Origin: Acidobacteriota bacterium
Lineage (GTDB): Bacteria; Acidobacteriota; Thermoanaerobaculia; Thermoanaerobaculales; Sulfomarinibacteraceae
Length of the DNA: 25,738 bases
NCBI GenBank assembly: GCA_015493585.1
Contig: WGCW01000134.1
Location: forward strand, 1-25,738
Direction of reading: 5' to 3'
Below are positions 2,735 to 25,738 of the stretch, piece by piece. A model generated the notes under the pieces. The model had not been told where the DNA came from. It ran no database searches and worked only from the letters and a program-made list of their open reading frames with translations. How positions within the stretch are numbered: the first letter of the stretch is position 1; every line of letters starts with the position of its first letter. Position numbers and translations under genes: made by a program.

Positions 2735-4192
2735 ATGGAGTTGGATCTCAAAGAGCTCCTGATGTTCATGACGAAGAAAGGTGCATCAGACCTGCACCTC
2801 AAACCCACACGTCCACCCCTGTTGAGGATCCAGGGACGTTTGATCCCATTAAAGGCAGCACCTCTCAAGCCCGACGAGGTTGAGAGCATGATCATGGAGA
2901 TCCTAACGCCGGCGCAGCGCGAGAGGCTGCACACACACCAAGCGGTCGATGTCGGCTATGGGCTTGCCGGCGTCGCACGATTCCGGTGCAATTTCTATCA
3001 ACAACGTGGCACGATTGCTGGGGTATTCAGGCGGATTCCTTTTGAGATCAAGCCGGTCGAAGAGCTCAATCTGCCCGACGTTCTCAACACCTTTACCCAT
3101 CTCCCGGCGGGGCTCGTCCTCGTCACAGGTCCTACTGGATCTGGAAAATCGACGACGCTGGCTGCTCTGATCCAACGGATCACCCAGACGCGGCCCTGTC
3201 ACGTCGTGACAATCGAGGATCCAATCGAATTCTTGTTCACCGACGACAAGGCGACAGTGTCCCAGCGGGAGGTTGGTACCGATACGCCGAGCTTTCAGGA
3301 AGCCCTCCGGAACACGATGCGCCAGGATCCGGACGTCATTATGGTTGGCGAGATGCGGGACCTCGACACGGTTTCGACGGTCATCACCGCAGCGGAAACG
3401 GGCCACCTTGTCTTTTCCACCCTGCACACGAACTCGGCGTCGCAGACCATCGACCGGATCATCGATTCATTCTCCTCCGACCAGCAGGCCCAGGTTCGAA
3501 GTCAGCTCGCACTGGTCCTTAAGGCCGTCGTTTCCATGACACTGCTCAAGAGGGCCGATGGGAAGGGTCTGGTTCCTGCTGTTGAGATCCTCATGAACTC
3601 GCCAAAGATCTCAAAGCATATCGAGGATGGTGAAATCAAGGAGATCCACGAGGAAATCGAGAATTCCGTCGCCTATTTCAAGATGCAGACAATGAACCAG
3701 TCGCTGATCGCGCTTCTGGTCAACGGGATCATTTCCTACGAGACCGCCATTGACGCGTCAACTGATCCCTCAGACCTGTCGTTGAAGCTGAGAAAGCTCT
3801 TCCCTTCGATCGAAGAGCAGTTTAGGGAGGGAGCCATGGCCCCGTCGCCAGCAGATTTTTCAGAAATCCTCGAGCTGATCGAGGTCAAACGCCTCTACGA
3901 GGAATCCGAGGAACGGCACAAGGTCGAAATGCAGGCGAAGGATGAGCAGATCGCCGCATTGGAGCAGGAAATCGCAGACCTGCGCCGGATGATGGAAGAA
4001 GATTCAAGTAGCGTCGATGCAATCAAGAAACAGCTCGAGCAGCTGCAAGCCGAAAACCAGCTCCTTCGTGATGAATCAGCGAAGAAGGTCGCCACACTCA
4101 ACGAGAGGATTCGGGACCTCAACCAGCGTCTCCGTGAAGCCGGAGGCGGGCCCAAGACCGCCAAGAACCCTTCCGGCTTCTTCAAGCACTGA
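2735..4192 (+). CDS. pilT: Type IV pilus retraction (twitching motility) ATPase, PilT family, 485 aa, with an atypical C-terminal coiled-coil extension of about 125 aa.
   Basis: MELDLKELLMFMTKKGASDLHL is a PilT-like N-terminus. Walker A is LVLVTGPTGSGKSTT, Walker B is VIMVGEMRDLDT, and GHLVFSTLHTNSA is the His box. The C-terminal tail EEQFREG...LEQEIADLRRMMEE...QLEQLQAENQLLRDE shows heptad periodicity. I chose the ATG at 2735 (RBS GGAGG at 2730-2734) over the ORF-track start at 2516, whose first 73 codons run back into the repeat element. Confidence 0.9.
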   Translation: MELDLKELLMFMTKKGASDLHLKPTRPPLLRIQGRLIPLKAAPLKPDEVESMIMEILTPAQRERLHTHQAVDVGYGLAGVARFRCNFYQQRGTIAGVFRRIPFEIKPVEELNLPDVLNTFTHLPAGLVLVTGPTGSGKSTTLAALIQRITQTRPCHVVTIEDPIEFLFTDDKATVSQREVGTDTPSFQEALRNTMRQDPDVIMVGEMRDLDTVSTVITAAETGHLVFSTLHTNSASQTIDRIIDSFSSDQQAQVRSQLALVLKAVVSMTLLKRADGKGLVPAVEILMNSPKISKHIEDGEIKEIHEEIENSVAYFKMQTMNQSLIALLVNGIISYETAIDASTDPSDLSLKLRKLFPSIEEQFREGAMAPSPADFSEILELIEVKRLYEESEERHKVEMQAKDEQIAALEQEIADLRRMMEEDSSSVDAIKKQLEQLQAENQLLRDESAKKVATLNERIRDLNQRLREAGGGPKTAKNPSGFFKH

Positions 4193-4204: not shown

Positions 4205-5485
4205 TTAATTGGCGGCCTTCGGCCGCGCGAAGAAGTACCCCTGCAGGAGGAAAACACCAAGGTCCTGAAGAACGGTCACCTCTTCCTGGCGTTCAACCCC
4301 CTCGGCGATCACGAGCGATTGGCTGGTGTGCGCAAACCCGATGATTGCCGAAATCAAGTTGCGCTTGATCGGCTCGGACGCGACCCCTTGCACGAGCATG
4401 CCGTCAAGCTTGATGTAGTCCGGCTTGACATCGGTGAGCGTTTGCAGCGAGCTGTAGCCCGTTCCCATGTCGTCGATCGCCACGCGGAATCCCTGGGACC
4501 GGAGCTTCATCACTCTCTTGAGAATCCGCTCGGGATCCTGTGCGTAGGTGTGCTCCGTAATCTCCAGTACGATTTCGCGGGGGGACCATCCTCCTTTCCG
4601 CGCAAGCGGCATCAGCCCACCATGCTCGCCCTCCAGGTACTCCAAGCCCCGGAACGACAGGTTGAGGAACAGTGTTGAACCCAATGGCAAGTGATGTCCG
4701 TTGGAAAGTGCTTTCTCGATACAGAGCTCCTCGAGCTCACCGAGCATCCCGGAACGCTGGGCGAATCCCAAAATCCGTTCAGCCGGTTCGAGGTAGGAGC
4801 CTTCAGGACCCCTGCACAGCGCCTCGTATCCGACGACCGTGCGCTGAGGCACCCGGATGATCGGCTGAAAAAGCGTCCTCACCGAACGGTCTCTGAGGAT
4901 CTGTTGCAGTTCGCGGCGCCGGTTGAGGTCAAGCTCCCGCCTCCGTCTGTTGAAATCCTTCTCCGCCTGTTCAAGGCCAGTGAAAATGCAGCGCTCGATG
5001 CGCTGCGACGGCCGCGGCCGGATGCTGCCCTGCCCCACCCTCAAGCTCAGTGTGAACGCCTCCTCCAGCTCCGGTGCCTCGACGCGGATCGGCTCCGATA
5101 CGAGCTCCAACAGCCTGCCGGTCTGGCGCCGGTCCGGCAGAAAAATGAGAAAGCGATCACCCCGCACACGATCCTGGCATAGCACGCTCCCCGCGCTGCG
5201 GAAGCTCGACAAACTATTCTTGAGATATTCCGCAACCGATCGCAGCAACGCATCGTACCGCTGCCATCCAACGATCAGCTCAAGGCTCTGCTCTTGCTCG
5301 ATCCGGATGATCAGCACCTGGACCGACCGTTGGTCCTCAAGCATCTTCCGGATCTGGTCCATCACCGCCGGGAGGCTCGGCAGGCCGGTTCCCGGGTCGA
5401 ACAGGCTGGCCTGGTACTGCAGCAGCTGCGTCGTCAGCTCGGCTGGATCGGACGGGATGACCGGGCCGGCAATGGGGTCAACCAT
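4205..5485 (-). CDS. Cyclic-di-GMP phosphodiesterase, 426 aa, with a degenerate GGDEF domain followed by an EAL domain.
   Basis: The EAL domain is YEALCRGPEG ... GFRVAIDDMGTGYSSLQTL ... IKLDGMLVQG. The upstream domain aligns to GGDEF, but the signature reads VRGDRFLIFLP where RYGGEEFLILLP is expected, so it is probably an inactive cyclase. The start ATG at 5485 overlaps the receiver stop as ATGGTTGA. A TTG alternative lies at 5512. Confidence 0.88.
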   Translation of the reverse strand: MVDPIAGPVIPSDPAELTTQLLQYQASLFDPGTGLPSLPAVMDQIRKMLEDQRSVQVLIIRIEQEQSLELIVGWQRYDALLRSVAEYLKNSLSSFRSAGSVLCQDRVRGDRFLIFLPDRRQTGRLLELVSEPIRVEAPELEEAFTLSLRVGQGSIRPRPSQRIERCIFTGLEQAEKDFNRRRRELDLNRRRELQQILRDRSVRTLFQPIIRVPQRTVVGYEALCRGPEGSYLEPAERILGFAQRSGMLGELEELCIEKALSNGHHLPLGSTLFLNLSFRGLEYLEGEHGGLMPLARKGGWSPREIVLEITEHTYAQDPERILKRVMKLRSQGFRVAIDDMGTGYSSLQTLTDVKPDYIKLDGMLVQGVASEPIKRNLISAIIGFAHTSQSLVIAEGVERQEEVTVLQDLGVFLLQGYFFARPKAAN

Positions 5486-5867
5486 CACTTGGCTCCGCGT
5501 CCGGACGGCCAATCAGTTGTTCGACTTGAGCGAGAAGATCCCGGTTCGAAAACGGCTTGCAGATGTAGGCGTTCGCGCCGAGCTGAAGGCTCCCAATCTG
5601 GTCAAGCTGGCCGGTCCGTGCCGAAACAATGATCACCGGAACATCAGCCCCCTGGGGCTGTGCCCGGAGCAGCTTCAACAGCTCCATGCCATCGAGGTCC
5701 GGCATCATCAGATCGAGCAGGACCAGATCCGGAGGAGCTTGGAGCATCCGCGCCAGGGCCCGGCGGCCGCTCGTCTCTGTTTCCACCTCGTAGCCCTCCA
5801 ACTCAAGAACCGTCTCGATGAGCTCAACGACGTCCGGTTCATCATCGACAACAAAGACCCGTTTCAT
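5478..5867 (-). CDS. Stand-alone CheY-like response-regulator receiver protein, 129 aa.
   Basis: MKRVFVVDDEPDVVELIETVLELEGYEVE...PDLVLLDLMMPDLDGMELL...VPVIIVSA...ICKPF is a canonical REC fold with an acidic pocket and a phospho-acceptor Asp in LLDLMMP. The ATG at 5867 is preceded by GGGGGA. In another frame, the longer track ORF (to 6161) overlaps the kinase C-terminus by 263 nt (5899-6161). Confidence 0.85.
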   Translation of the reverse strand: MKRVFVVDDEPDVVELIETVLELEGYEVETETSGRRALARMLQAPPDLVLLDLMMPDLDGMELLKLLRAQPQGADVPVIIVSARTGQLDQIGSLQLGANAYICKPFSNRDLLAQVEQLIGRPDAEPSDG

Positions 5868-10686: not shown

Positions 10687-10828
10687 CCCCCCCGGCCCAG
10701 ATTCTTCGTCGGCTTCACCTCCTCAGAATGACAGCCGGAGGGAAGGCGACGCCTCCTCAGAATGACACTTCCCCCTGTCATCCTGAGCGGCGTGCCGAAG
10801 GCTCGCCGCGAAGGATCTGGGAGGGGGC
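10687..10828. repeat. Short member (3a) of the repeat family. A variant left inverted repeat CCCAGATTCTTCGTCGGCTTCACCTCCTCAGAATGACA is followed by one unit and the hairpin CTCAGAATGACA-CTTCCCCCT-GTCATCCTGAGC, then the right end GGCGTGCCGAAGGCTCGCCGCGAAGGATCTGGGAGGGGG.
   Basis: Read directly. It is the same architecture as 2177-2547, with AGA in place of AGG in the core. Confidence 0.8.
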
Positions 10829-10844
10829 CAAAGTTGGGGACGGT

Positions 10845-11170
10845 CTTGCACTCATCTCGGCCTTCCTCTGCGAACCTCCGCGTTCTCTGCGGTTAGGTTC
10901 TCCCTGCGGCCGTCCCCCACCCAGATTCTTCGTCGGCTTCGCCTCCTCAGAATGACATTGGGGGGAAGGCTGTGCCTCCTCAGAATGACATTGGGGGGGA
11001 AGGCTGTGCCTCCTCAGAATGACATTGGGGGGAAGGCTGTGCCTCCTCAGAATGACGCCTCCCCCTGTCATCCTGGGCGGCGTGCCGAAGGCTCGCCGCG
11101 AAGGATCTCGCCTCCGCAAAATGACAGGGGGGCTTCGCCTCCGGCTCACGATGACAAGGGAGGGAAGGCC
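10845..11170. repeat. Member 3b of the repeat family. The leader CTCTGCGAACCTCCGCGTTCTCTGCGGTTAGGTTCTCCCTGCGGCCGTCCCCCA and the left inverted repeat CCCAGATTCTTCG precede a tandem array of three 33/34-nt units CCTCCTCAGAATGACATTGGGG(G)GAAGGCTGTG. Then come the hairpin arm CCTCCTCAGAATGACGCCTCCCCCT-GTCATCCTGGGC, the right inverted repeat and two further degenerate units (AAATGACAGGGGGG, CTCACGATGACAAGGGAGG).
   Basis: The leader matches 2177-2232 at about 90%. Units begin at 10950, 10983 and 11017. Confidence 0.85.
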
Positions 11171-11284: not shown

Positions 11285-13501
11285 GTGGTACAGCAAGGTG
11301 ATCTGGCCGGGAAAACGTCCGGCGACGCGGTGGCGGTCGTCGAAGGCGCCGTCAGCCGCGTCATTTACGCCAACGACGAGAACGGATGGGCGGTAATCTC
11401 GATTCGTCCAGATGACGGCGAAACGCTCACAGCCGTTGGCTCGCTCCTCGGCGTCCGGGTGGGCGACCGCCTGCGGATGACGGGCTCTTGGCGCCGTCAC
11501 GAGAAGTACGGCCGTCAGCTCGCCGTTGAAAGCTTTGTCCACATCGACCCAACGACGAAATCAGGCATCCGCAAGTATCTCGCCTCTGCCAAGATTCCTG
11601 GCATCGGGCCCGTGACGGCGGAACGTCTTGTCAAACGTTTTGGAACCGGTACGCTGCACGTGCTGGAGCACGAACCGGACCGGCTGACCGAAGTCCCCGG
11701 CATCGGGCCAAAAACCGCCAGAAAGATCCGTGAGGGCTGGAGCAAGGTCCGGGGGCTCCAGGAGATCATGGTGTTCCTTCAAGGGCACGGTGTCTCCCCT
11801 TCCGTGGCGCTCAAGGCGTACAAAAAGTACGGTTCCACCGCTCTCAAGGTGGTCCGGGACAATCCGTACCGCCTCGCCGGGGAGCTGTTTGGCGTCGGCT
11901 TCTTGACCGCGGACCGCATCGGCAGAAACCTCGGCATTCCTGTGGACGCACCGCAGCGGCTGGAGGCGGGTCTGTTGTACGTGCTTGCTGAAGCCGCCGG
12001 AAACGGACATGTTTACCTGCCAGCGAACGTCCTCCGCAAGCGCGCGGCAGAGTTGCTCGAGGTCGAGCCGGATGAGCTCGTGACCGCGCTCAATACATTG
12101 GTGCAGAAGGGTCTCGTCGTCTCCGAGCCCGTCGATGACGGTGAGGGGTTCTGGTTGCCCCGGCTCTACAAAGCAGAACAGCGGACCACCGAGCGGCTGG
12201 CCGAACAGCTGACGTCCGAAACGGCAAAGATCGACATTGACACCGGCCGTGCGATCCCGTGGTACGAGCGCACGAGCGGCATCACGCTCGGCGATGTCCA
12301 GCGCCGCGCCCTCGCCGAGGCCCTGACCGGCAAGCTGCTGATCATCACCGGCGGGCCCGGCACCGGCAAGACGACACTGATTCGCGGGCTCGTACAGATC
12401 CTCTCGCGTAAGGACCAGACGATCCTCCTCGCGGCGCCGACGGGCAGGGCCGCCAAGCGGCTCAGCGAAACGACCGGCCTAGCCGCGAGAACGATCCACC
12501 GCTTGCTCGAGTTCAACCCTGTGACCAGAACCTTTGGGCGGTGCCGGGAGACGCCGCTCGCAGCCGACGTCCTCGTGATCGACGAGGTCTCCATGCTCGA
12601 CATCGAGCTTGCCGCACATCTGCTCGACGCGGTGCCACCGGCGTGCCGAATCGTCTTCGTCGGCGACGCGGATCAGCTCCCCTCCGTGGGGCCGGGCGAT
12701 TTCTTGCGGGACCTGGTCGGCTCGCGGCTCGTGCCCGTAGTCCGCCTCGACACGATCTACCGCCAGTCCGCCGGCAGTCTGATCGTCGTTAACGCGCACC
12801 GGATCAACCGTGGGGAGATGCCGCTATTGCCCGAAAGCGGCCGCCTGACCGACTTTTACGTCATCAACCGGGATGATCCTGAGGCTGCGGCAAAAACGGC
12901 TCTGGATCTCGCCACGCACCGCATTCCGGCGCGCTTCCGGCTCGATCCAGTCGACGACATTCAGGTTCTGGCGCCGATGCACAGGGGCGAGCTCGGCGTC
13001 ATCGAGATGAATGACCGGCTCCGGCGGGCGCTCAACCCCTCCGGGCCCGAGCTCGTCTTCGGCTCCAGGCGGTTCCGCGTGGGCGACAAAGTCATGCAGA
13101 TCCGGAACAACTACGAGCTTGACATCTATAACGGCGATATCGGCCGGGTCAGCACCATCGATCCGGAGAATCTGACAGTCACGGTCGATTTCCAGGGCCA
13201 CGTCGTGCCGCTCGCACGGGAGGACCTCGACGATCTCGTGCTCGCGTACGCCGTGACAATCCACAAGTCACAAGGTTCCGAGTACCCCGCGGTCATCATT
13301 CTGCTCCACCACCAGCACTACGTGATGCCCGAGCGCAATTTGTTGTACACGGCGGTCACCCGCGGAAAACGGCTCGTCATCATCGTTGGGAGCCGGCGGG
13401 CGCTCGTCCGCGCCGTCTCAAACGCAACCCACCGGATCCGCTACACCCGGCTTGCCGCCCGTCTCACCGGGGCGCTCGCTGACCGCTCCCGCTCGACGTA
13501 A
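11285..13501 (+). CDS. recD2: RecD2-like SF1B ATP-dependent DNA helicase (RecD/TraA family), 738 aa.
   Basis: An N-terminal OB-like domain is followed by HhH repeats (GIGPVTAERL, GIGPKTARKI). Walker A is LLIITGGPGTGKTT, Walker B is VLVIDEVSMLD, and the C-terminal motifs are YAVTIHKSQGSEY and LLYTAVTRGKRLVIIVG. The first in-frame start is the GTG at 11285, directly after a TAA, so the exact start is uncertain. Confidence 0.88.
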   Translation: MVQQGDLAGKTSGDAVAVVEGAVSRVIYANDENGWAVISIRPDDGETLTAVGSLLGVRVGDRLRMTGSWRRHEKYGRQLAVESFVHIDPTTKSGIRKYLASAKIPGIGPVTAERLVKRFGTGTLHVLEHEPDRLTEVPGIGPKTARKIREGWSKVRGLQEIMVFLQGHGVSPSVALKAYKKYGSTALKVVRDNPYRLAGELFGVGFLTADRIGRNLGIPVDAPQRLEAGLLYVLAEAAGNGHVYLPANVLRKRAAELLEVEPDELVTALNTLVQKGLVVSEPVDDGEGFWLPRLYKAEQRTTERLAEQLTSETAKIDIDTGRAIPWYERTSGITLGDVQRRALAEALTGKLLIITGGPGTGKTTLIRGLVQILSRKDQTILLAAPTGRAAKRLSETTGLAARTIHRLLEFNPVTRTFGRCRETPLAADVLVIDEVSMLDIELAAHLLDAVPPACRIVFVGDADQLPSVGPGDFLRDLVGSRLVPVVRLDTIYRQSAGSLIVVNAHRINRGEMPLLPESGRLTDFYVINRDDPEAAAKTALDLATHRIPARFRLDPVDDIQVLAPMHRGELGVIEMNDRLRRALNPSGPELVFGSRRFRVGDKVMQIRNNYELDIYNGDIGRVSTIDPENLTVTVDFQGHVVPLAREDLDDLVLAYAVTIHKSQGSEYPAVIILLHHQHYVMPERNLLYTAVTRGKRLVIIVGSRRALVRAVSNATHRIRYTRLAARLTGALADRSRST

Positions 13502-16649: not shown

Positions 16650-17723
16650 CTAGGAGATGAACATCGCATCTCCATAGGAGAAGAACCGGTAGCGCCGAAG
16701 GACGGCCTGGCGGTAGGCTGCCAGCGCATGCTCACGACCGGCAAAGGCGCTAACGAGCATCAGGAGCGTCGACTTCGGCCAGTGGAAGTTCGTCAGCAAC
16801 CCGCCAAGCCCTTGAAAGTGAAAGCCCGGCGTGATGAACAGGCGGCTCCATCCTGATCCCGGGCGCAGCATCCCGCCTCCTGTGATCAGACCAGTCTCGA
16901 GGGTCCGGACCGCCGTCGTACCCACACACACGATCCGCCGCTGGCTGGCGAGGGCGCGGTTGATCGTGCGGCTGGCCCCTTCCGTGATTTCGTACCACTC
17001 CGCGTGCATCGTGTGATCTTCGATCCGCTCGACGGTGACGGGCCGGAAGGTGCCGATCCCGACGTGGAGGGTCACCTGGGCAATCTCGATCCCGCGGGCC
17101 GCGATCTCCTCGAGCATCTCGTGCGTCAGGTGCAGGCCAGCGGTTGGGGCGGCTACGGCTCCAGGCTTATCGGCGAAGACCGTCTGGTACGCTCGCCTGT
17201 CATCCTCCGTGGCGCCGTCCGGCCTGTGGATGTACGGGGGAAGCGGCGGTTGACCCAATGCATCGAGCCGCTCGAGGTCGAGCGCCGGCACGCAGCGGAT
17301 CCGCCAGCGCCCCTCACCAAGCCGTTCCTCGGGCACGAGGGCACCACCGTCTGGAAGGTGGAGCTCTTCCCCGGGCCGGGCCCTCGCTGACGGGCGCAGC
17401 AGCGCTTCCCACCGCTCCTCGTCCAGCGCTTTGAGGAGGAGCACCTCGAACGTCCGGCCCGTCGCGCGCTGGGCGCTCAGACGTGCGGGGAGCACCTTCG
17501 TGTCGTTGAGCACGAGCACATTGCCCGGCACGAGCAGGGTGGGAAAGTCGGCCACGCGCCGGTGCCCAACCGCTCCGGTACGCCGGTCCAGCGTCATCAT
17601 CCTCGCAGTTCCCCGCGGCCGGGGGGCCTGCGCAATCAGCTCGGGAGGCAGCTCGTAGTCAAACTCGCTCGTCCGCACCGGCGCATCATACTCCGGCAAA
17701 GGCCCGGAGAAAGGCGGTGACAC
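16650..17723 (-). CDS. queA: S-adenosylmethionine:tRNA ribosyltransferase-isomerase QueA, 342-357 aa.
   Basis: FDYELPPELIAQAP, VLVLNDTKVLPARL and LHLTHEML...HVGIGTFRPV are hallmark QueA blocks. The ORF begins with GTG at 17723. A second in-frame GTG at 17678 (V16, with GGAG 14 nt upstream) would give the more typical N-terminus VRTSEFDYELP. Confidence 0.88.
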   Translation of the reverse strand: MSPPFSGPLPEYDAPVRTSEFDYELPPELIAQAPRPRGTARMMTLDRRTGAVGHRRVADFPTLLVPGNVLVLNDTKVLPARLSAQRATGRTFEVLLLKALDEERWEALLRPSARARPGEELHLPDGGALVPEERLGEGRWRIRCVPALDLERLDALGQPPLPPYIHRPDGATEDDRRAYQTVFADKPGAVAAPTAGLHLTHEMLEEIAARGIEIAQVTLHVGIGTFRPVTVERIEDHTMHAEWYEITEGASRTINRALASQRRIVCVGTTAVRTLETGLITGGGMLRPGSGWSRLFITPGFHFQGLGGLLTNFHWPKSTLLMLVSAFAGREHALAAYRQAVLRRYRFFSYGDAMFIS

Positions 17724-19174: not shown

Positions 19175-19407
19175 CCCCCCACCCAGATCCTTCGCCTTCG
19201 GCTCAGGATGACAAGAAAAGTGGAATGGCTCAGGATGACAAGAAAAGTAGAATGGCTCAGGATGACAAGAAAAGTAGAATGGCTCAGGATGACGCGGACG
19301 AGGGATCATTCCGAGGAGGAGAAGTCATCGTTTCCCCTGTCATCCTTGAGGACAAACTATTCTTTCCCCTGTCATCCTGAGCCGAAGGCGAAGGATCCGG
19401 GTGGAGG
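19175..19407. repeat. Repeat-family member 4. The left inverted repeat CCCCCACCCAGATCCTTCGCCTTCG precedes three 27-nt units GCTCAGGATGACAAGAAAAGT(G/A)GAATG and a degenerate unit. Then come the arm TCATTCCGAGGAGGAGAAGTCATCG, 2x CCCCTGTCATCCT(T)GAG, and the right inverted repeat CCGAAGGCGAAGGATCCGGGTGGAGG.
   Basis: Units begin at 19202, 19229 and 19256. The ends are inverted-complementary (19182-19200 vs 19384-19400). Confidence 0.9.
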
Positions 19408-22485: not shown

Positions 22486-25014
22486 ATGCCAGAGTACACG
22501 CCCCTGCACGGCTCCGTCCGCGCGGCGCTCGACGCGATTCTTCCCCGCGTGATGAAGCCCGCCCGCTATCTCGGGCTGGAGCGGAATCTCGTGCGGAAGG
22601 CGTGGGACAGTGTTGCGATCCACGTCGCGCTGGCGTTCCCCGATACGTACGAGATCGGCATGTCCCATCAGGGTTCCCGGATCCTCTATCACCTGGTCAA
22701 CCGCCGTCCGGACGCCCTGGCCGAGCGGACCTACGCGCCGTGGGTCGACATGGCCGCAATGATGCGGGAGCACCGGGTCCCGCTGTACACGCTGGAATCG
22801 TACCGGCCGGTCCGTGATTTCGACGTCGTCGGGATCACGCTCCAGTCCGAGCTCAACTACATCAACGTGCCGTACCTCCTCGACCTCGGCGGTTTGTCCC
22901 GGCGGGCGGCCGATCGCCGGGAGGATGAGCCGATCGTCGTGGGCGGTGGACCGTGCATGGCCAATCCAGAACCGGTCGCCGCCTTCTTCGATGCGATGCT
23001 GATCGGAGACGCCGAGGCGGCTCTCGATCAGATCCTCGACACCATCCGCTCGGCGCGCGAGGCCGGTAGCTCGCGGCTCGGGCTGTTGCGGCGGCTGGCC
23101 GGCATCCCCGGGGTCTACGTGCCCCGGCTGTACCGCTTCGCTGGGAACGGCGCGGAAGGCGTTGCAACCGCCGCCGGGCCGGACGTGCCATACCCCGTCC
23201 AGCGGGTCTGGACGCCACACCTCGACGCCGCCGATCAGCCGGAAGTGCCGATCGTTCCGTTCGCCGGCGTCATCCAGGATCGCCTCGGCATGGAGATCAT
23301 GCGCGGCTGCACACGCGGCTGCCGCTTCTGCCAGGCGGGCTTCTGGTACCGGCCGGTCCGGGAGCACGACCCGGCCGTCATCGCCGAACGCCTGCAGCGC
23401 CAGGCCAGCGAGACCGGGTTCGAGGAAGTCGGCCTCCTGAGCCTCTCCTCGGCCGACTACTCGCAGATCTCACCGCTGGTAGCCACCCTCGCGGCGCGCT
23501 TTGAGGACCGCCGCGTCTCGGTCAGCCTGCCGAGCCTCAGAGCCGACGCATTTTCCGTCAACCTCGCCGATGCTGTCTCCCGCGTTCGCAAGTCGGGGTT
23601 CACCTTTGCCCCGGAGACCGGCTCGGACCGGCTGCGCCGCGTCATCAACAAGACCTTTACCAACGACGAGGTGATCGAGGCTGCCGGCGCCGCGTTTGCC
23701 AAGGGATGGAACCTCCTCAAGCTGTACGCGATGATCGGCCTGCCCACCGAAACCGGCGAGGACCTCCGCGAGCTGGCTGGCCTTGTCCGGAAGCTCGTCG
23801 CGCTCGGGCAAAGGATTCGTGGCCGGCGGGTCGAGGTTAAGCTCTCGGTTGGCTCCTTCATCCCGAAGCCTTGGACGCCGTTCCAGTGGGAGCCGTTTGG
23901 GCCGGTCGACGCTCTCGAACGCAAGATCGCACTGCTCCGCGACGAGCTCCGGCGCGTACGAGGTGCACGGATGACCTGGAACGATCCACATCAGGCCGCT
24001 CTCGAAGCGCTGCTGTCCCGTGGCAGCCGGGCGTTGACCCCAGCCATCGAGCGCGCGTACGAGCTCGGAGCCGTCTTTGACGGGTGGTCCGATCAGCTCA
24101 ACCTCGATGCCTGGGACCGGGCGTGCGCCGAAACCGGCATCGACCGTGAGGCCGAGCTCGGCCCGCGCAGCCTGACCGCCTCGCTTCCGTGGGACGTCAT
24201 CGCGCCCGGCGTCCGCAAGGGCTACCTCAAGGCCGAACGGCGCCGCGCGTTGAACGAAACCGTCACAGGTGACTGCAAGTGGGGCGCCTGCACCCATTGC
24301 GGCATCCCGGGCGATGGCAACGACATCGACCTCGCTCCGGCGACCCTCGCACCGCCCACTGCCCGCCGCCCGGCAATCCGCACCGGGGAGCGAACAGCGC
24401 CGGCCGCCTCCAGACGCGTCCGGATCACCTTTTCCAAGACCGGCGACGCGCGCTTCCTCTCCCATCGCCAAGTCATGGACGCTCTGGAACGGGTCCTGCG
24501 GGCCGCACAGATTCCGGTCCGGTTCACCGGCGGTTTCAACCCCCACATCCGGCTGTCGATGGGGCCGGCGCTGCCGCTCGGCTATGAGGGGCTGGCCGAA
24601 GCGTTCGACATCGAGTGCACAGCTCCACTGCGTCCCGCGCACCTCGAAAGGATCAACGCCAAGCTGCCAGACGGCCTCCGGCTGACCGGAATGACGAGCC
24701 TCCTTCCGGGCGCTCCATCGCTCGGCAAGCTGGCGGCGGCCGCCCGCTACCGGATCAAGCTGCCGGATGGCGCTCCGCCGCTGCGGCGCGAGGCGATCCC
24801 GGACGAGCTCAGACCCGGCGTACAGCTTTGGAAAGAGCTCGAAGGAGGAGCAATCCGAGTGCAGCTCAACCTCCGGCAGCAGGAGGGACCCGCGCCCACC
24901 GTGAGGACCCTGCTGACGGCGCTGGGCGTCCCGGAAACCGGTCAGGCGGCCGCTCGCATCACGCGGGAGGCCGTGATCCTCAAACCAAGAGCCAGATCGC
25001 GGGAGGCCTCATGA
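22486..25014 (+). CDS. Large radical-SAM protein, 842 aa. It appears to be a single-polypeptide fusion of a B12-binding-domain/radical-SAM enzyme (TIGR03960-like) with a radical-SAM-linked DUF2344 (TIGR03936-like) C-terminal domain.
   Basis: CTRGCRFCQAGFW is the CxxxCxxC radical-SAM cluster motif at about residue 275. The N-terminus (VAIHVALAFPDTYEIGMSHQGSRILY) resembles a cobalamin-binding-like Rossmann module. The C-terminal block RVRITFSKTGDARFLSHRQVMDALERVLRAAQIPVRFTGGFNPHIRLSMGPALPLG matches the DUF2344 profile, which I recall usually being a separate adjacent gene. Confidence 0.88.
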   Translation: MPEYTPLHGSVRAALDAILPRVMKPARYLGLERNLVRKAWDSVAIHVALAFPDTYEIGMSHQGSRILYHLVNRRPDALAERTYAPWVDMAAMMREHRVPLYTLESYRPVRDFDVVGITLQSELNYINVPYLLDLGGLSRRAADRREDEPIVVGGGPCMANPEPVAAFFDAMLIGDAEAALDQILDTIRSAREAGSSRLGLLRRLAGIPGVYVPRLYRFAGNGAEGVATAAGPDVPYPVQRVWTPHLDAADQPEVPIVPFAGVIQDRLGMEIMRGCTRGCRFCQAGFWYRPVREHDPAVIAERLQRQASETGFEEVGLLSLSSADYSQISPLVATLAARFEDRRVSVSLPSLRADAFSVNLADAVSRVRKSGFTFAPETGSDRLRRVINKTFTNDEVIEAAGAAFAKGWNLLKLYAMIGLPTETGEDLRELAGLVRKLVALGQRIRGRRVEVKLSVGSFIPKPWTPFQWEPFGPVDALERKIALLRDELRRVRGARMTWNDPHQAALEALLSRGSRALTPAIERAYELGAVFDGWSDQLNLDAWDRACAETGIDREAELGPRSLTASLPWDVIAPGVRKGYLKAERRRALNETVTGDCKWGACTHCGIPGDGNDIDLAPATLAPPTARRPAIRTGERTAPAASRRVRITFSKTGDARFLSHRQVMDALERVLRAAQIPVRFTGGFNPHIRLSMGPALPLGYEGLAEAFDIECTAPLRPAHLERINAKLPDGLRLTGMTSLLPGAPSLGKLAAAARYRIKLPDGAPPLRREAIPDELRPGVQLWKELEGGAIRVQLNLRQQEGPAPTVRTLLTALGVPETGQAAARITREAVILKPRARSREAS

Positions 25015-25433
25015 GCCGCTGGGTCGTGCACAGCCGAGCTGCATTTCACGCGCGCCACGCGCTCGCCCGGTACCGGGGTGAGCCTGAGCATCCGCACGAG
25101 CACCGGTGGAAGGTCGCCATCGAGGCCGGTTTCGAGAGCCTGACCGACGAAGGGTACGCGGCCGACTTCAGTTCGGTCCATGCCCTGCTTCGCTCGCTCG
25201 TCGCCCCGCTCGACGGAAGCGATCTTAGTCAGCACCCCGAGATCGGCGTCCCCTCCCCGACGGCCGAACGCCTCGCCGAATTTCTCGCATCCCGCCTCGC
25301 CGCCCCGCTCGGCGCCCTCGGCGGGCGCCTCCTGACGATCAGCGTCTGGGAAGGTCCTGACAACCGTGTCGACTACCATCCCGATCCAGGTCCCTCCGCC
25401 GGGCTCGAGAACTCGGAGCAGCGCTCAGGCTGA
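25011..25433 (+). CDS. 6-pyruvoyl-tetrahydropterin synthase / QueD-like (T-fold) protein, 140 aa, that lacks the catalytic Cys.
   Basis: AFHARHAL...EPEHPHEHRWKVAIEAG...ADFSSV...LTISVWEGPDNRVDYHP shows the His/HxH zinc triad and the layout of the PTPS/QueD family. The position of the QueD CxxxHGH cysteine is taken by EPEHPHEH. The start forms a 4-nt ATGA overlap with the radical-SAM stop, and GGGAGG lies 4 nt upstream. Confidence 0.7.
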   Translation: MSRWVVHSRAAFHARHALARYRGEPEHPHEHRWKVAIEAGFESLTDEGYAADFSSVHALLRSLVAPLDGSDLSQHPEIGVPSPTAERLAEFLASRLAAPLGALGGRLLTISVWEGPDNRVDYHPDPGPSAGLENSEQRSG

Positions 25434-25461
25434 CCTGGCCGTGAAGGCCTTGAGATTCCGT

Positions 25462-25738
25462 CCCCCCCGCCCAGATCCTTCGCCTCCGGCTCAGGATGAC
25501 CGGGGGAAGTGGCATGGCTCAGGATGACCTGGGGAAGTGGCATGCCTCAGGATGACCGGGACAGTGGAAGGGCTGAAGATAGCCCTGAAAGGGTTGTGCG
25601 ACTCACGACAACGACTGAGGGCGACATTCCGAGGAGACGAAGCGCGCCCTTTCCCTGTCATTCCGAGGAGGCGAAGCCATTCCTCCCTTGTCATCCTGAG
25701 TCGCTCAATCCTCCTACTGTCATCCTGAGTCGCGTGCC
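25462..25738. repeat. Repeat-family member 5; the window ends inside it. The left inverted repeat CCCCCCCGCCCAGATCCTTCGCCTCCG precedes three 28-nt units GCTCAGGATGACCGGGGGAAGTGGCATG (variants), a unique core, GACATTCCGAGGAG / CCCTGTCATTCCGAGGAGG arms, and 2x GTCATCCTGAGTCGC.
   Basis: Units begin at 25481, 25509 and 25537. The tail matches element 1 at 1-60. Confidence 0.85.

Follow-up and report, generated by a model that had tools for sequence, protein, structure and literature searches.

A long PilT-family ATPase gene of Thermoanaerobaculia with a conserved coiled-coil tail and a candidate internal translation start

Does a gene for a PilT-family motor that runs on for more than a hundred codons past its ATPase core make a single long protein, or does it also make its tail as a product of its own? 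The question is raised by a 25,738-nucleotide stretch of contig WGCW01000134.1 (assembly GCA_015493585.1), from an Acidobacteriota bacterium of the Sulfomarinibacteraceae; we refer to this whole stretch as the window. Its plus-strand frame holding positions 2735-4192 stays open from 2516 to a stop at 4190-4192, and an earlier note on this DNA had described it as an orphan PilT with a coiled-coil extension, exposed to the danger of a hidden frameshift at the junction. We regard as evenly poised the proposal that this gene would yield, by internal initiation, both the full motor and a nested stalk-and-tip protein of 118 amino acids, the stalk and tip serving to tether or pair the motor.

The fused frame and the candidate start signal inside it

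The long motor gene is real and conserved in the Thermoanaerobaculia (Acidobacteriota). A search over 5.8 billion proteins with the full-length query retrieved more than 120 homologue clusters with 68–94% identity, nearly all of 476–483 amino acids and covering 99–100% of the query; those that are named come from metagenome-assembled genomes (MAGs) of Acidobacteria or Thermoanaerobaculales. Likewise, a locus scan over one genome per species, using a 7-sequence alignment as query, gave 271 relatives of the tail, 80 of which were fetched; their titles are Acidobacteriota, Thermoanaerobaculia or Holophagales, save for one MAG titled Acidithiobacillales. Tail and PilT core share one open frame in each of these 80 genome loci and in six further metagenome loci, and the bridging residues 347-367 are conserved at the protein level. 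Most of the loci are from Thermoanaerobaculia, and the extension is lineage-specific, a point which the earlier note had left to be checked.

At the junction (near 3821-3838), where a gene split had been suspected, there is no stop codon, and what we found there is a conserved Shine-Dalgarno-like motif followed by an in-frame ATG. The motif, AGGGAGGGAG, lies at 3824-3833 on the plus strand, as do all the features of the gene given below, and its GGAGG core (3826-3830) ends 5 nucleotides before the ATG of Met368 (3836-3838), the proposed internal start; the window site thus reads AGGGAGGGAGCC ATG. Taken together, motif and ATG suggest a nested in-frame open reading frame at 3836-4192, which would encode a putative stalk-and-tip protein of 118 amino acids with the predicted N-terminal peptide (M)APSPADFSEILELIEVK. 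The boundary of this nested frame coincides with a hinge in the AlphaFold2 model and with the start of a series of database fragments of about 115 amino acids.

We evaluated the site in a dereplicated set of 49 homologues below 90% nucleotide identity, whose mean amino-acid identity is 0.66. The ATG is present at the Met368 position in 49/49 of them, a perfect GGAGG stands 4–5 nucleotides upstream in 41, and seven more have a 4-mer core. The motif is kept across codon registers, being written as cGG GAG GGn (R-E-G) or CGA GGA GGn (R-G-G), and also as CAG GGA GGA GAC (Q-G-G-D, in the peptide RQGGD) or GAA GGA GAA GAA (E-G-E-E, in the peptide REGEE); in distant members it reads caAGGAGacggc (Q-G-D-G) and GAGGAGGgcgatacg (E-E-G-D-T). 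Averaged over the set, the hinge site has the strongest pairing with the anti-Shine-Dalgarno sequence in the gene, at -10.2 kcal/mol versus a gene mean of -1.35 (standard deviation 2.0). In 45 of the 49 sequences, Met368 is followed by Ala or Ser.

Codon choice at the site departs from that of the rest of the gene. Arg364 is encoded by CGA in 31/49 sequences, a codon that makes up 5% of the Arg codons gene-wide, and the Gly that follows it is GGA in 28/31, against 17% gene-wide; as a control, other invariant Gly and Arg columns use several codons, mostly GGC and CGC. Indeed, of the 199 columns examined, these two deviate the most from the synonymous usage of the gene as a whole. At the third positions of 59 conserved four-fold columns, pairwise identity averages 0.47; at positions -9, -6 and -5 relative to the ATG it is 1.0, 0.96 and 0.88. 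Because four-fold third positions have diverged to this extent, shared ancestry cannot account for the conservation of the motif. The same geometry, GGAGG N4-5 ATG, is found at real gene starts of the window, at 414 (a CARDB protein) and 25011 (a PTPS/QueD-type protein), and other window genes have a GGAGG 3–8 nucleotides before their start. As read from these codon and third-position comparisons, nucleotide-level selection maintains the Shine-Dalgarno motif and the ATG at the hinge.

Programmed frameshifting stimulated by the motif was considered and dropped, because no sequence variant has an adjacent slippery heptamer. Searches for an internal promoter or terminator gave nothing above chance, and no RNA families or tRNAs were found.

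The protein databases hold many short entries that begin at this site. Searching with the tail only among 1.84 billion representatives gave 111 matches, about 50 of which have 110–122 amino acids and begin exactly at Met368, and a profile search added more than 100 further short entries. All the entries that we traced, however, proved to be contig-edge fragments, on sub-kilobase contigs or contig ends where the open frame reaches the edge (L087, L088, L090 and L091), or to come from a frameshifted long-read contig with the PilT core in another frame (L089), and the short entries were accordingly rejected as evidence for a free-standing small tail gene. Gene callers choose the Met368 ATG on contigs that cut the gene, and they do so because a strong Shine-Dalgarno motif precedes it. 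This is a warning for annotation: more than 100 database 'proteins' of 113–122 amino acids start at Met368, with names, where they have one, such as nuclease or SMC-like, and the ones traced are cut pieces of the long PilT gene. As a separate observation, more than 100 public entries of 106–200 amino acids (P0244, P0258, P0262, P0190, P0310, P0323 and others) resemble truncated C-terminal PilT pieces; the names given to some of them are 'predicted nuclease with TOPRIM domain', 'chromosome segregation ATPase', 'EnvC' and 'CwlO-like'.

The motor core, its tail and the main start

The core of the protein is a PilT/PilU family member by score, motifs and fold. Residues 5-346 (2747-3772), which comprise an N-terminal PAS-like domain and a RecA-like ATPase domain, match positions 2-342 of the 343 in the TIGR01420 model with 429.3 bits, against a cut-off of 319.1, and PF00437 matches the core as well. 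The Walker A motif GPTGSGKST lies at 3128-3154 (residues 132-140) in a column that is invariant in our alignments A1 and A4, followed by the Walker B motif with the catalytic Glu, DPDVIMVGEMRD, at 3326-3361 (residues 198-209) and by the His box TGHLVFSTLHT at 3398-3430 (residues 222-232). Indeed, GPTGSGKST, the Asp box TIEDPIEF, DVIMVGEMRD and GHLVFSTLHT are all invariant in both alignments, and they align to Geobacter PilT4. This protein is also the best match of the core model, in sequence and in fold, with 47–48% identity over about 350 residues; in Foldseek comparisons the AlphaFold2 model matches the structures 6ojx and 6ojz with E values of about 1e-43 and template modelling scores, normalised to the target, of 0.74–0.84. 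With all its catalytic motifs intact, the core is best explained as a hexameric secretion-type ATPase, where the hexamer is a prediction and the AlphaFold2 model that of a monomer.

One motif sets the family apart. In the alignment to 5zfq, the position of the PilT motif AIRNLIRE is occupied by PKISKHIED (3602-3628, residues 290-298), which has just two Ile in common with it, along with a conservative change of Glu to Asp. PKISKHIED is kept within the long-PilT family, where P290, K291 and H295 are invariant, and because of this family-conserved replacement we file the protein as a divergent paralogue of the PilT family rather than as PilT proper.

Alignments to solved PilT structures stop at residues 352-354, and the protein therefore continues for 130–140 residues beyond any characterised PilT. 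The core thus ends slightly earlier than residue 360, the approximate limit given in the earlier note, with the hidden Markov model match ending at 346. Measured from this last boundary the extension has 139 amino acids, and 118 from the hinge Met368. No Pfam, NCBIfam or PDB family was found for the tail, which gave only generic, sub-threshold coiled-coil matches, and no solved structure covers it, either in Foldseek searches or among PDB sequences.

The extension had been described as a coiled coil of about 125 amino acids with a basic end. Its heptad periodicity is real and conserved across the 49 homologues, and the basic end is there too (the sequence closes with ...KTAKNPSGFFKH), but the extension is more than a coiled coil, three conserved motifs having been missed: an invariant N-terminal motif, an LNERIRxLNQ block and an invariant C-terminal GFFK[RH]. 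In alignments A1, A2 and A4 the tail falls into six parts, namely a post-core segment, a hinge, the N-terminal motif, a heptad region, the block, and a linker with the tip. Post-core segment and hinge, DLSLKLRKLFPSIEEQFREGA (3773-3835, residues 347-367), form two short helices and then a flexible stretch, with the consensus DLSLKLRKxFPxIEE for the segment and R-(E/G)-G-x-M for the hinge. The N-terminal motif of the module, DFSEILELIEVKRLYEESEER, lies at 3854-3916 (residues 374-394) and has the near-invariant consensus DFSxIxELxEIKxLYEExEE.

From 3848 to 4141 (residues 372-469, about 98 residues) the tail is predicted to form a single heptad-repeat alpha-helix, the coiled-coil stalk, which would measure about 14 nm if fully extended. 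In the 49 homologues, the a and d positions between about residue 390 and residue 468 are hydrophobic in a fraction of 0.5–0.7, compared with less than 0.1 for the other positions; the heptad register holds from about residue 376, with one register shift near 425-435. Within the stalk, the conserved block LNERIRDLNQRL, which corresponds to the LNERIRxLNQ consensus, occupies 4097-4132 (residues 455-466). A variable linker rich in Gly, Ala, Pro and Lys follows (4142-4174, residues 470-480), for which the predicted local distance difference test score (pLDDT) is below 50, and the protein ends with the tip GFFKH (4175-4189), whose residues F482, F483 and K484 do not vary in A1 or A4. The tip is GFFKR in most relatives, with H in the window and its closest relatives, and it is kept in the distant members of A2. 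The AlphaFold2 monomer, modelled from a 63-sequence alignment with a mean pLDDT of 75.5, agrees with this layout: a PilT core, short helices at 345-364, a hinge with pLDDT below 50 at 366-368, a continuous helix at 372-469 and disorder at 470-485.

The main start of the gene is probably TTG 2741 rather than ATG 2735. A GGAGG motif at 2730-2734 stands 6 nucleotides ahead of the TTG and directly abuts the ATG, and the closest homologues, P0001 and P0234, have 483 amino acids and start at the codon equivalent to 2741; it is this spacing and these starts that favour the TTG. The coding sequence would then extend over 2741-4192 and encode 483 amino acids, compared with 485 from ATG 2735, while one public gene call for the same sequence starts at ATG 2678 and gives 504. 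In one subclade of relatives (L052, L054, L077, L078, L085, L070, L055 and others) there is a perfect TATAAT 7–9 nucleotides before a TTG or GTG start that has no Shine-Dalgarno motif; in terms of position, the TATAAT is about 15 nucleotides upstream of the PilT start. Given the nearby TATAAT and the missing motif, the mRNA of this subclade may be leaderless with respect to the main reading frame, with a strong Shine-Dalgarno motif retained at the internal site. Two contigs of one MAG (MFD05942.bin.1.319), L069 and L073, each carry a copy of the gene, so that this genome has either two paralogues or a mixed bin.

Genomic surroundings of the gene

The description of the locus as an orphan holds. 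Pfam scans of the long open reading frames revealed no pilus gene in the window, none of its frames contains a prepilin signal motif, and no pilus genes were found within 5–10 kb in any relative examined. None of these relatives has the gene linked to pilus genes, so its being an orphan carries little weight; pilT is often unlinked in well-studied bacteria, for instance in Pseudomonas aeruginosa.

The gene was also correctly placed between a repeat element and a convergent EAL gene, which correspond to a repeat cluster at 2226-2546 and to a gene on the minus strand at 4205-5512. The product of the latter has an EAL domain (E value 6e-52) and a weak GGDEF match (E value 6e-06; 26.5 bits, the cut-off being 23.8), perhaps to a degenerate domain. 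In six metagenome loci (L001-L006) of five close homologues, in the subclade to which the window belongs, the PilT gene is followed on the same strand by mgtE (MgtE_N, CBS and MgtE domains), and in two of them, L005 and L006 (mgtE at 11873-13231 and 11833-13188, respectively), mgtE is followed by the convergent block that the window also has (EAL, response regulator, histidine kinase and YicC genes). The window itself lacks mgtE, and the stops of the PilT gene (4192) and of the EAL gene (4205) are 12 nucleotides apart. A functional link to mgtE was rejected, given its absence from the window and the lack of any mgtE match within 6 kb in 80 other loci; likewise, a link to the EAL, response regulator and histidine kinase genes was discarded, as this synteny holds only within the same subclade.

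The commonest conserved neighbours are a histidine kinase gene and, after it, a PolyA_pol/CCA-adding-type gene directly upstream of the long PilT gene, an arrangement found in L004, L005 and L089 and in 30/49 loci, with a median gap of 47 nucleotides. In the window this upstream block is replaced by a gene for a CARDB-domain protein (414-2006) and the repeat cluster. None of these neighbour links holds across the family, and for this reason they say little about function.

The repeat is a dispersed short sequence, GCTCAGGATGAC or its complement GTCATCCTGAGC, which occurs in five clusters (19-48, 2226-2546, 10777-11144, 19201-19371 and 25423-25719), often as tandem 27-nucleotide units and inverted pairs, the second cluster lying just upstream of the PilT gene. 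It looks like an intergenic element of the repetitive extragenic palindrome or miniature inverted-repeat transposable element (REP/MITE) type, and gave no match in Rfam. Elsewhere in the window, at 25002-25014, ATG 25011 is the most likely start of the PTPS (QueD-type) gene, as it has a GGAGG 4 nucleotides upstream and overlaps the radical-SAM stop (ATGA); the listed reading frame, 24615-25433, begins with GTG 24615 and contains the Pfam domain only from its residue 140. A queA gene is found at 16650-17723.

A proposed two-product model, its rivals and its relatives

We propose that ribosomes would start at Met368 as well as at the main start, so that one mRNA would give two in-frame products, a motor of about 483 amino acids and the 118-amino-acid stalk and tip. 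Since the helix of a coiled coil requires partners, the stalks of the hexamer could take free stalks as theirs, or stalks could pair among themselves. The flexible FFK tip would then attach the assembly to the membrane or to some fixed partner, and such docking would localise or regulate a PilT-type motor of a type IV filament machine encoded elsewhere. Our confidence decreases along this chain, being highest for initiation at Met368, lower for stalk pairing, lower again for tip docking and lowest for the service to a type IV filament machine. The most specific version of the model, in which the 118-amino-acid protein of the nested gene would co-assemble with the six stalks of the hexamer and would anchor or gate the motor through the FFK tip, making this the first two-isoform system of the PilT/GspE superfamily, we put at slightly below an even chance.

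Several observations weigh against initiation at Met368. The mean minimum free energy at the site (-9.4, compared with -9.0) is average, and the mRNA is clearly less structured only at codons 373-376. A spacing of 4–5 nucleotides is at the short end for Shine-Dalgarno function. Each gene has other Shine-Dalgarno-like strings, produced by the codons preferred for Lys-Glu and Glu-Glu; one of these pairs more strongly than the hinge site in 23/49 sequences. Among the entries traced, moreover, we found no lineage with the module as a truly separate gene, which would have been proof that the module can function by itself.

One alternative concerns the target of the motor. The protein might not be a pilus motor at all, and the PilT-like ATPase might have been recruited by some other secretion or uptake system or by a cytoskeleton-like scaffold, with the tail as the link. 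This would fit the lack of nearby pilus genes, the replacement of AIRNLIRE by the family-specific PKISKHIED and the conserved neighbours, a histidine kinase and a PolyA_pol/CCA-type enzyme. The core, however, has bona fide PilT retraction ATPases as its nearest matches, its score is well clear of the family cut-off, and unlinked pilT genes are common. We consider another job for the motor rather unlikely. It concerns only what the motor acts upon and is compatible with the two-isoform mechanism.

The main rival to internal initiation itself holds that only the full-length protein is made, that the GGAGG is an elongation signal, such as a pause through anti-Shine-Dalgarno pairing that lets the ATPase domains fold, or the hexamer form, ahead of the stalk's emergence, and that Met368 is a structural residue. 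It retains the nucleotide-level selection on the motif, which is compatible with any function at the RNA level; the site lies exactly at a domain boundary, and the mRNA there is not notably open. But a pause needs neither an in-frame ATG at a fixed 4–5 nucleotides in every sequence nor a small residue in second place, and Met368 lies in a hinge of low predicted order, which sits poorly with a structural role. Besides, pausing induced by Shine-Dalgarno motifs in vivo is disputed. All told, we find an elongation signal unlikely.

Far less probable is that motif and ATG have lost their function and are left over from an ancient event in which pilT fused with a small coiled-coil gene downstream of it. 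The module does start exactly at the ATG and, like an independent protein, has a conserved N-terminal motif of its own. A relic, however, would have decayed in genes whose synonymous sites are randomised (0.47 identity) and whose control Gly and Arg columns are mixed, whereas the motif has been rebuilt in different codon registers; nor did the 'standalone' database proteins traced reveal any extant unfused arrangement.

Finally, it is hardly credible that the long frame arose artificially, through a sequencing error or frameshift near 3800-3850 that joins pilT to a separate coiled-coil gene: the Shine-Dalgarno motif and ATG at 3824-3838 do resemble a gene start, and many database 'proteins' of about 115 amino acids begin at Met368, but a continuous frame conserved throughout the lineage (in the 80 independent genome loci, the six metagenome loci and more than 120 clusters) excludes such an origin, the bridging residues are conserved as protein, and the short entries traced sit at contig ends, which the frame reaches without closing.

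Internal initiation at Met368 would place the gene within a known class of bacterial genes. In-frame internal initiation gives rise to C-terminal isoforms in the type III secretion protein SctQ (YscQ, SpaO, Spa33), in CheA with its long and short forms, in ClpB and in IF2. Like these, the long PilT gene has a Shine-Dalgarno motif and an ATG inside the reading frame at a domain boundary, and its putative short product is the C-terminal module. The differences are that initiation in SctQ, CheA, ClpB and IF2 has been demonstrated experimentally, whereas that in the long PilT gene is proposed from comparative sequence alone; that none of the four is an ATPase of the PilT/GspE superfamily; and that the putative short product is here a coiled-coil stalk, not a folded domain. 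To our knowledge, in-frame internal initiation has not been described in that superfamily. In E. coli, internal initiation has been the subject of a genome-wide survey (bioRxiv 10.1101/520783).

In comparison with the PilT retraction ATPases of Geobacter (PilT4; 5zfq, 6ojx), Aquifex aeolicus (2ewv) and P. aeruginosa (3jvv), the long protein has the same two-domain core and ATPase motifs. The solved PilTs, however, end at the equivalent of residue 352 or so, without the hinge, the 98-residue helix and the FFK tip, and they have AIRNLIRE where the long gene has PKISKHIED. PilU likewise lacks a canonical AIRNLIRE motif. The P. aeruginosa PilU (9n32) shares the TIGR01420 family and the fold, with 38–39% identity, but is a weaker match than PilT (265 versus 345 bits) and has no coiled-coil tail.

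Short C-terminal docking peptides are known in other proteins, for example the membrane-targeting sequence of MinD (KGFLKRLF) and the C-terminal peptide of FtsZ. The likeness, which we offer as a lead only, is in a variable flexible linker that precedes a short invariant end with aromatic and basic residues, GFFKR, and in the many copies per assembly; on the other hand, GFFKR has five residues, too few for an amphipathic helix. A coiled-coil protein of the kind that positions or regulates the machinery of type IV pili, FrzS, exists in Myxococcus (PMC3158785, PMC11580455), as a separate protein with no detectable sequence relation to the tail. Regulators of the FrzS type are separate from the motor, whereas in the long PilT gene the coil is fused to the ATPase itself. 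In the literature we found no report of a PilT with a coiled-coil tail, of internal initiation in PilT, or of relevant pili in Thermoanaerobaculia. What is new here is the selected candidate signal for an internal start and the uncharacterised tail, the family of the ATPase core and internal initiation as a bacterial device being already known.

PilT motors have been studied as bare hexamers, and their positioning and switching are mostly credited to separate partners. Throughout the class Thermoanaerobaculia, the motor itself carries a long stalk and a putative docking tip, and the stalk is seemingly made separately as well, within the one reading frame. If true, this would provide a testable model of a secretion-type ATPase that is tethered or regulated by its own isoform, and it would add a further deeply conserved case of internal initiation in bacteria, one found by comparing sequences only. 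Likewise, it would give the PilT/GspE superfamily a counterpart of the SctQ/SctQ-C pair of type III secretion.

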